The notes under the pieces were generated by a model. It was not told the origin of the DNA. It saw only the letters and a list, made by a program, of their open reading frames with translations, and ran no database searches. This document shows, in pieces, positions 62,428 to 64,000 of a stretch of DNA of 64,000 nucleotides; the stretch's first letter is position 1, and each line of letters starts with the position of its first letter. The DNA comes from a plasmid, in sequence record NZ_CP023785.1, one strand, 5' to 3'. Both the position numbers and the translations under genes were made by a program.

Positions 62428-62823
62428 CTAAAGAATTATATCTGATAACCTTCCATGTTTTTCATATGATGTTACTCTTTCAACTTTATTATTATCATCG
62501 ACAAAAACAACCTTAGGTCTATGATCCTTAACCTCATTTTCATTTAATTCACAATATGCCATTAAAATTATTTTATCTCCAGTTGATACACATCTAGCTG
62601 CAGCTCCATTCAAGCAAATCATCCCTGTTCCTCTCTCTCCAGCTATTGTATAAGTTTCAAATCTATTTCCATTATTAACATCAACTATTTGTACTTTTTC
62701 ATATTCATATATTCCTGCTGCTTCTAATAAATTCATATCAACAGTAATACTTCCTACATAATCTAACTCAGCTTGTTCAACTGTAGCTCTATGTATTTTT
62801 CCTTTTAACATTGTAACTTTCAT
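62428..62823 (-). CDS. panD: aspartate 1-decarboxylase proenzyme
   Basis: [27 protein letters not shown]... has the Gly-Ser self-cleavage site and the canonical PanD N-terminus. It is very low GC. Confidence 0.9.
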
Positions 62824-62832
62824 TATAGCCCC

Positions 62833-63681
62833 CTATTGTAATTCAAATGTAAAATTATCTATTAATCTTGTTTTTCCTATAAATACTGCTATTGCAACTA
62901 AAACTGATTTTTCAATATAATTTACTCTTTGTAATGATAAAGAATCAACAACTTCTACATAATCAATCTTTGCCAAATTATAAGTATTTATATTTTTACT
63001 TATTATCTCAATTATTTTTAAGCTGTCTCTCTCTCCATTATTTAAAGCTTCCTTAGCTAAAGTTAAAGATTTATTTAAAATAGTAGCTGAAGATCTTTCC
63101 TCTAAACTTAAGTATGTGTTTCTAGAACTTTTAGCTAGTCCATCCTCTTCCCTTATAATTGGACACCCTACAACGTCTATATCAATATTAAGGTCCCTAA
63201 CCATTCTTTTAATTACAGCTAACTGTTGTGCATCCTTTTCTCCAAAATAAGCTCTATCTGCTGGTATTATGTTAAATAATTTACTTACAACAGTGCAAAC
63301 CCCTCTAAAATGTATTGGCCTACTAGCTCCACATAAACCTTCTGTTAATCCAGTTATATTAACAAAAGTACTTGCATTGTCACAATACATCTCTTCAACT
63401 TCAGGATTAAATATTGCTGTTGCTCTACCTCTTGTGCATACTTCTATATCTCTTTCTAAGTCTCTTGGATAACTACCTAAATCTTCATTTTTCCCAAACT
63501 GAGTTGGATTTACAAAGATACTTACAACAACTTTATCATTTTCTTTTGATGCTTTTCTAATTAAACTTTCATGACCTTCATGTAAATATCCCATAGTAGG
63601 AACTAATCCTACCTTTAAGCCTTGTTTTTTCCACTCTTTTACTTGACTTCTAACATCATTCACTGTTTTAAATATAACCAT
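62833..63681 (-). CDS. panC: pantoate--beta-alanine ligase
   Basis: GLVPTMGYLHEGHESLI is the HIGH-type nucleotidyltransferase motif of PanC. The product is 282 aa. Confidence 0.9.
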   Translation of the reverse strand: MVIFKTVNDVRSQVKEWKKQGLKVGLVPTMGYLHEGHESLIRKASKENDKVVVSIFVNPTQFGKNEDLGSYPRDLERDIEVCTRGRATAIFNPEVEEMYCDNASTFVNITGLTEGLCGASRPIHFRGVCTVVSKLFNIIPADRAYFGEKDAQQLAVIKRMVRDLNIDIDVVGCPIIREEDGLAKSSRNTYLSLEERSSATILNKSLTLAKEALNNGERDSLKIIEIISKNINTYNLAKIDYVEVVDSLSLQRVNYIEKSVLVAIAVFIGKTRLIDNFTFELQ

Positions 63682-63695
63682 ATTTCTTGACCCTT

Positions 63696-64000
63696 TTAAT
63701 ATAATTTTTCTAAAACATCATCACTTATTTTAAACCCATGTTCTGGACCTGGAAAAACTCCATCTTTTACTTCCTCTATATATTTTGTAAATGCTTTATT
63801 CATCTCTTCTGATAAATTAGCATATTTCTTCACAAATTTAGGGGTAAAATCACTATACATCCCCAACATATCTTGATATACAAGAATTTGTCCATCACAC
63901 CCTGCACCTGCTCCAATACCAATTGTAGGTATTGATATCTCTTTAGAAATTAACTCTGCAAGCTTAGTTGGAACACATTCTAACACTACAGCGAATGCTC
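63696..64000 (-). CDS. panB: 3-methyl-2-oxobutanoate hydroxymethyltransferase, C-terminal part (gene continues beyond window end)
   Basis: ...[24 protein letters not shown]... is a conserved PanB segment. The operon order is panB-panC-panD. Confidence 0.8.

Follow-up and report, generated by a model that had tools for sequence, protein, structure and literature searches.

The closest described relative of the genes considered here is the panDBGC locus for pantothenate synthesis in Enterococcus faecalis V583. It lies in a known variable element, EF_1847-EF_1897, with atypical GC content and a flanking site-specific recombinase, found in V583, in MMH594 and in one divergent strain (PMC1899230). 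The locus is missing from 27 of 62 E. faecalis strains, implying 35 carriers (PMC6593275), and panD has been counted among 'blood-specific' E. faecalis genes (PMC6042284). The present analysis concerns a copy of these genes at one end of a 64,000-nucleotide stretch of a plasmid, sequence record NZ_CP023785.1 (this whole stretch is the window, and coordinates are positions in it unless another locus is named), where panD, panC and the 3' part of panB occupy positions 62428-64000.

Three further systems are relevant. One is PanG of Francisella (FTT1388), the founding DUF2520 reductase, described as a ketopantoate reductase that replaces PanE (PMC4572677, PMC4207893). DUF2520 proteins, with V583 EF1861 and one from C. 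difficile named explicitly, are counted among its homologues (PMC4572677), and V583 copies are reported to complement a Francisella mutant (PMC13055272). Another is the pan RNA motif, a tandem-hairpin leader found before pan operons, whose function and ligand were unknown when it was described (PMC2864571). A third is presented by the plasmid-borne panC and panB of Rhizobium etli and R. leguminosarum, which likewise place pantothenate 'housekeeping' genes on a large plasmid (PMC3082293). The rhizobial genes, however, are described as essential housekeeping copies, while the enterococcal cassette is accessory, bounded by insertion sequences (IS), strain-variable and, as argued below, of clostridial derivation.

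It is probable, in our judgment, that the genes in the window are the distal part of a four-gene pantothenate operon with a clostridial history, lying in a 4.7 kb module that is bounded by IS on a pLG1-type megaplasmid of Enterococcus faecium, and that they serve to make pantothenate. The cassette itself is already known and annotated: the genes bear the right names in hundreds of RefSeq plasmid records, and the E. faecalis locus has been treated in print both as varying between strains and as encoding a PanG homologue, while no paper discussing the cassette on E. faecium plasmids turned up in the literature searched. What is added here is that the E. faecium megaplasmids and the V583 island hold one and the same 4.7 kb module, at 99.5% identity, that this module brings along a promoter and a pan RNA leader of its own, and that it descends from Clostridium sensu stricto, from an operon type linked to serS.

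Gene Content of the Operon

The three genes in the window lie on the minus strand, closely packed, in the transcriptional order panB, panC, panD. The last gene of the operon, panD (62428-62823), encodes an aspartate 1-decarboxylase of 131 amino acids (aa) that matches the NCBIfam equivalog TIGR00223 with 172 bits (cutoff 106) and PF02261 with 177 bits, covering model positions 1-114 of 115. The preceding gene, panC (62833-63681), encodes a pantoate--beta-alanine ligase of 282 aa, matching the equivalog TIGR00018 with 350 bits (cutoff 213) and PF02569 with 365 bits. Of panB, which continues past position 64000, the window includes no more than the last 101 codons (63696-64000), and the family test for PanB (275 aa) used the full-length gene of a plasmid locus in pTT39_p1 (L001), which scored 351 bits with TIGR00222 (cutoff 208) and 401 bits with NF001452. 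Positions 61443-64000 of the window are 99.96% identical to this locus, and 100% identical to a second plasmid contig (L092). For the pan proteins Pfam agrees with NCBIfam (PF02548 being the PanB family), and the family matches are far beyond chance. The initial annotation, which recognized a partial panB followed by panC and panD, was thus borne out in both gene names and coordinates.

Residues associated with function are also in place. PanD retains the self-cleavage site Gly24-Ser25 (YVG-SITVD), at which the pyruvoyl group is generated; its K9, H11, R54, T57, Y58, and N72 align with the PanD structures of M. tuberculosis and C. jejuni, and its LNGAAA stretch aligns residue for residue with M. 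tuberculosis PanD (2c45). From these conserved residues, both autoprocessing and decarboxylase activity are predicted. The HxGH nucleotidyltransferase motif of PanC is found as LHEGH, residues 33-37 of the translation.

The initial annotation had pointed beyond the window for a ketopantoate reductase (panE). A reductase gene is indeed found there, directly upstream of panB, of the PanG type (DUF2520) rather than PanE: in L001, panG spans 17308-18168 (861 bp) and is annotated as 'Rossmann-like and DUF2520 domain-containing protein.' The two-domain architecture is recovered with PF10728 (DUF2520; 117 bits) and PF10727 (Rossmann-like; 44 bits), and the nearest solved structures, 2i76 and 3d1l, are unannotated structural-genomics proteins. 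In enterococcal and most Clostridia loci panG is found directly 5' of panB, standing in for panE. With panG beside panB, the de novo pathway is complete, employing a PanG-type instead of a PanE-type reductase. The enterococcal protein shares with Francisella PanG the Rossmann and DUF2520 domains and the PanE-replacing role in a pan locus, a likeness drawn from citing papers and Pfam domains; secondary citations and shared domains together suggest that enterococcal PanG is a ketopantoate reductase. The naming of PanE and PanG is loose in the enterococcal literature: a 2026 paper speaks of 'panE copies' of V583 as complementing Francisella (PMC13055272), while another names the DUF2520 protein EF1861 as the V583 homologue of Francisella PanG (PMC4572677). 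The B. subtilis protein YkpB has also been renamed 'PanG,' though it is a PanE-family paralogue (PMC11487621).

The full unit, which is completed just past the window end, is composed of a promoter, the pan RNA motif, panG, panB, panC, and panD. The motif (RF01749) is found in L001 at 18181-18262 (minus strand), about 1.5 kb past the window end, and ends 13 nucleotides (nt) before the start of panG. It covers the full model (1-92), with two tandem hairpins, and scores 41.7 bits in the plasmid, compared to 45.9 bits for the E. faecalis copy (locus L087, 8193-8274), against a gathering score of 36.2; the E. faecium copy carries two substitutions relative to that of E. faecalis. In E. faecalis, too, panG is preceded by this motif, as it is in C. 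difficile and in every Clostridium locus tested, among them the C. cuniculi/celatum group and two metagenomic contigs discussed below (L082 and L083). In the leader alignment, the -10 element TGATAAAT, both hairpins and the GGAGG ribosome-binding site are conserved.

One Module in Two Enterococcal Species

A 1.77 kb pan stretch is found with 100% identity in many E. faecium plasmids of 135-290 kb, and positions 19500-44400 of the window are likewise 100% identical in several of these. The annotated neighbors include AbiE toxin-antitoxin genes, a circular bacteriocin, several phosphotransferase system (PTS) sugar modules, xerS and many IS, and the replicons are of rep_cluster_893. The window is an accessory region of a pLG1-type E. 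faecium megaplasmid. At least 80% of a 3.27 kb cassette is present in 92 complete E. faecium plasmid records, nearly all with 100% identity, and the matching plasmid records are from E. faecium or other enterococci, save two that match through IS-related sequence only. The proposal of the initial annotation that these are acquired accessory genes is upheld, as on E. faecium megaplasmids they are found between IS and are not part of the core genome. The public assembly collection has the exact PanC sequence in 11,248 of its blocks, and in 181 of these there are contigs longer than 1 Mb; clusters at 90% identity include members from E. faecalis, E. avium, E. gallinarum, and E. raffinosus.

Of the places listed for the exact PanC, nine of ten are on contigs of 1.1-3.1 Mb, seven of which are chromosome-sized (2.9-3.1 Mb). 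In these chromosomal loci the operon is preceded by genes for an FtsX/ABC transporter and a two-component system, and followed by an IS3 element, an 86-aa open reading frame (ORF), an IS256 element, a PTS EIIC gene, a GH35 beta-galactosidase gene and an integrase gene. Their PanD and response regulator are PAND_ENTFA and Q833S2_ENTFA in UniProt, both V583 proteins. Plasmid and chromosome share a module of 4.7 kb (L087 6620-11358) at 99.5% identity. It comprises the four genes with their pan leader, an IS256-like remnant on the upstream side and, at the other end, a tail of 101 bp. PanB and PanC are identical between the plasmid and the V583-type copy, PanG differs by S171F and PanD by T14K and N31D; five synonymous changes and a 3-nt indel in the panC-panD spacer complete the list of differences between the genes.

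The V583 locus thus has the same module, pan RNA leader, upstream IS256-like remnant and 101-bp tail as the plasmid, and it also shares with it the neighboring IS256, 86-aa ORF and IS3 copies. The two differ in setting, the V583-type copy being part of a chromosomal island with a two-component system, an FtsX/ABC transporter and an integrase at the end, while the E. faecium copy is on a megaplasmid. In addition, the pTT39_p1 module, unlike that of V583 type, is interrupted in its upstream part by two copies of IS66, with IS1216 marking its end. Judged from this shared sequence, the immediate source of the plasmid operon was probably another enterococcal element.

A further copy is found on a 10.3 kb contig, NZ_CAAFUQ010000072.1 (L002), labeled as a metagenome-assembled genome of 'uncultured Finegoldia sp.'; its PanG, PanB, and PanC are 100% and its PanD 98% identical to those of the plasmid, the allele being of the E. 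faecalis type. Most likely the contig is enterococcal and was binned by mistake with a Finegoldia genome, one that GTDB uses to represent a species, and Finegoldia as a host of the cassette was set aside.

Clostridium Ancestry and Composition

In a survey of PanC loci in species-representative genomes, the best 80 of 582 loci were examined. The best matches beyond the enterococci are metagenomic proteins at 79-80% identity, followed by C. cuniculi, C. celatum, and an uncultured Clostridium at 73-74%. Save for one metagenome contig, the probably mis-binned L002, these 80 loci belong to Clostridia or to metagenome-assembled genomes labeled otherwise; none is from Staphylococcus or other Bacilli, and none from an Enterococcus species representative. 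Of the donor proposed in the initial annotation, Clostridia/Staphylococcus-like, the clostridial half therefore stands, with Clostridium operons nearest, and the Staphylococcus-like half is rejected, no Bacilli being among the best 80.

In L082 and L083, the nearest relatives, the genes again run panG-panB-panC-panD, with a GC content of 30-32% and a GC content at third codon positions (GC3) of 14-17%, and their proteins are, respectively, 86 and 82% (PanG), 86 and 93% (PanB), 79 and 80% (PanC), and 87 and 92% (PanD) identical to those of the cassette. Both operons lie between a T-box-regulated serS and tRNA-Ser genes and end, after panD, in a strong terminator (a hairpin with a T-run). The SerRS protein encoded beside the operon of L082 shares 90% identity with its C. 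septicum counterpart. The T-box serS/tRNA cluster context is seen in L082 (2074-2273 and 3869-3951) and L083, as well as in L003-L006 and L009, and this conserved context marks the operon type ancestral to the enterococcal cassette. Taken together, the Clostridium sensu stricto operons (L082, L083, C. cuniculi, C. celatum) resemble the cassette in gene order, tight spacing, GC content (30-32%, with GC3 of 13-17%), pan RNA motif, -10 element and ribosome-binding site. They differ from it in protein sequence (only 79-93% identical for L082/L083, or 61-87% for cuniculi/celatum), in the serS/tRNA setting, in the strong intrinsic terminator, and in that no IS is evident among the called genes and RNA hits around L082-L083. 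The enterococcal copy has lost everything of the Clostridium context outside the promoter-to-panD stretch.

A tree of concatenated PanB, PanC, and PanD (neighbor-joining with Kimura distances rather than maximum likelihood; 689 columns, 67 taxa) unites the enterococci, L082 and L083 in every one of 100 bootstraps; in 74 of these the resulting group joins the C. cuniculi/celatum clade. As the nearest relatives are clostridial and the cassette is nested among them, an ancestry in Clostridium sensu stricto is well supported.

As to composition, the initial annotation had described the genes as about 25-30% GC and far below the flanking DNA. The contrast is real, but modest. The GC content is 29.8% for panD, 29.6% for panC, and 32.5% for the panB part, and all 1573 bases together have 30.4%, versus 35.4% for the rest of the window, a difference of about 5 points, with no fall to 25%; as low or lower values are found in 3% of windows of the same size. 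The GC3 of the pan genes is 12-17%, and the 13.8% of panC is the lowest among 46 ORFs of at least 150 aa (mean 28.4%, standard deviation 8.4). Other modules come near, with GC3 of about 15-22% in 35531-39204, 27657-32191, and 49311-50363. The window is thus a mosaic of modules differing in composition, in which the pan genes are found at the low edge rather than as a lone outlier. The module at 35531-39204 encodes a MurR/RpiR regulator, an N-acetylmannosamine-6-phosphate epimerase (nanE) and PTS EIIC/EIIA, and that at 27657-32191 is a sucrose operon, with a sucrose PTS, a sucrose-6-phosphate hydrolase and a LacI regulator; both may be of foreign low-GC origin as well.

A shortfall of only some 5 points from the window average, and the similar GC3 of other plasmid modules, could be taken to mean that these are vertically inherited E. 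faecium genes of host-like composition. We give this reading practically no credence and regard it as already refuted: the places recovered in E. faecium are plasmids, species representatives of Enterococcus are absent from the 80 best PanC loci, the tree nests the cassette inside Clostridium, and the E. faecalis locus belongs to a known variable island and varies between strains (PMC1899230, PMC6593275). The best matches, in other words, are not core genes of the host with matching GC.

The clostridial composition and the clostridial nearest homologues outside the enterococci would also fit a direct acquisition by the megaplasmid, from a Clostridium or a Staphylococcus-like donor and independent of E. 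faecalis. This, however, is very improbable. Over the 4.7 kb, the module on the plasmid matches that of E. faecalis at 99.5% identity, and the match extends to the upstream IS256-like remnant, which is not pan sequence, and to the 101-bp tail; the two copies are equally distant from the Clostridium relatives, and the 80 best loci include none that is staphylococcal. The shared module and the equal distances argue for one entry, followed by spread within the genus. The history that we favor would therefore begin with a unit that arose in a Clostridium sensu stricto chromosome between the T-box-serS and tRNA-Ser genes and entered the enterococci a single time, and later IS-mediated movement would have distributed it among enterococcal elements, namely the V583 island, the E. 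faecium megaplasmids, and those of E. avium, E. gallinarum, and E. raffinosus.

Predicted Function and Persistence of the Module

The steps that can be assigned to the four proteins are those of the established pantothenate pathway. PanB would hydroxymethylate alpha-ketoisovalerate with 5,10-methylene-tetrahydrofolate (5,10-methylene-THF) to ketopantoate, PanG would reduce ketopantoate to pantoate, PanD, self-cleaved at Gly24-Ser25, would convert aspartate into beta-alanine, and PanC would join pantoate and beta-alanine, with ATP, into pantothenate, to feed the coenzyme A pathway of the host. Methylene-THF would be supplied from salvaged folate and alpha-ketoisovalerate by valine transamination; the latter source would be required because E. 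faecium is a branched-chain-amino-acid auxotroph (PMC10927581). Carriers of the module would, on this scheme, be independent of external pantothenate. The analysis establishes what the genes are, that they are intact and conserved, how they are distributed and where they fall in the tree; for E. faecium, the prototrophy, the expression of the operon, the enzyme activities and the supply steps are all predictions.

The premise of the initial annotation that enterococci are typically pantothenate auxotrophs is too general, since panDBGC is present, by implication, in 35 of 62 E. faecalis strains (PMC6593275). A search for papers stating an enterococcal requirement for pantothenate found none, only recipes for defined media that include it.

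A number of observations weigh against a functional, host-serving operon of this history. E. faecium has been reported to lack de novo folate synthesis (bioRxiv 10.64898/2026.05.01.720924), making PanB reliant on imported folate. A Francisella panG mutant was unimpaired in virulence, pantothenate being widely available (PMC4207893), and with such availability the fitness benefit of the cassette may be small. Many other megaplasmids possess the pan leader and only a 5' stub of panG of about 500 bp, beside IS256 (for example, NZ_CP085907.1, 162395-162894; the stub is annotated as 'Gfo/Idh/MocA family oxidoreductase'), and as these stubs are deletion derivatives, the cassette must be dispensable and repeatedly lost. 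The -35 region of the enterococcal leader has diverged from the Clostridium consensus, and a consensus terminator scan detected no terminator downstream of panD. The link to the Francisella work runs through EF1861, which is presumably the panG gene of L087, because this locus carries the PanD and the response regulator of V583. Finally, the donor is unsampled or the transfer is old, the nearest relative standing at 79-93% protein identity.

Several of these points (the stubs, the diverged -35 element, the undetected terminator and the abundance of pantothenate in host environments), along with the dense field of IS around the cassette, would be expected if it were a silent or decaying passenger, trapped among IS with its terminator and part of its promoter lost and contributing nothing to the host. 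We consider such a fate unlikely, as the four ORFs are intact and essentially 100% identical across some 90 plasmids, the E. faecium and E. faecalis copies differ by three amino-acid versus five synonymous changes, and the operon has kept its pan RNA leader, with the -10 element and the ribosome-binding sites, as well as the residues needed for catalysis and self-processing. An operon that makes pantothenate thus remains the preferred reading.

It is conceivable, though we hold this only tentatively, that the pan module adapts hospital-associated enterococci to their niche, in that E. faecium and E. faecalis would no longer depend on pantothenate obtained by cross-feeding. Such a trait could aid overgrowth in the antibiotic-depleted gut or growth in blood, and it would explain the shuttling of the module between the island of CC2-type E. 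faecalis and the megaplasmids of clinical E. faecium, beside sugar-uptake modules. If it does confer pantothenate independence, the cassette would rank with the carbohydrate modules on plasmids among the metabolic traits that favor the fitness of hospital-adapted enterococci. Being mobile and near-clonal, it also lends itself to identifying the signal sensed by the orphan pan RNA motif.

Insertion Sequences and Module Boundaries

The neighborhood of the operon is rich in IS, as the initial annotation had recognized. Abutting the pan module are nested IS3-family fragments on mixed strands (61183-62326; Pfam HTH_Tnp_1 and rve), in which Pfam recognizes an orfA (61936-62226, minus), an orfB fragment (61345-61824, minus) and an inverted rve fragment (61183-61479, plus). 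The next element is an IS256-family transposase gene (59653-60831, plus; Transposase_mut, 381 bits), identified as ISEf1 by the pTT39_p1 annotation, which is positioned between the IS3 fragments and a block of a further IS256-family element (57576-58919, minus; a Transposase_mut match) and an 86-aa ORF (59142-59402, minus) that has no Pfam match. This block (57525-59545) is 99.7% identical to L087 13429-15449, and is also found near pan in E. faecalis chromosomes, in the opposite orientation. The product of the 86-aa ORF is hydrophobic, its 90% cluster is confined to enterococci, and the ORF is found beside the IS256-family element near pan both in E. faecalis chromosomes and in E. faecium plasmids.

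The 3' tail of the pan module, common to the E. faecalis chromosomal copy, is the 101-bp segment 62327-62427 (minus). E. faecalis-type homology begins exactly at 62327, placing the junction between the pan tail and IS3 at 62326/62327, and the tail has no recognizable similarity to the L082 and L083 terminators. The panD side of the module is bounded by the IS3-family fragment; on the far side there is the IS256-like remnant, followed by the IS66 copies and IS1216. A composite transposon was rejected, as the flanking IS are from different families, with no matching pair around the module. With no identical pair available, recombination between shared IS copies is likelier than transposition as a unit, and homologous recombination of this kind is the more likely vehicle.

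At the other end of the window, collinearity with NZ_CP017793.1 places an AbiEi/AbiEii type IV toxin-antitoxin pair at 2144-3652 (plus) and a circular bacteriocin gene of the uberolysin/carnocyclin family at about 9548-9811 (plus).

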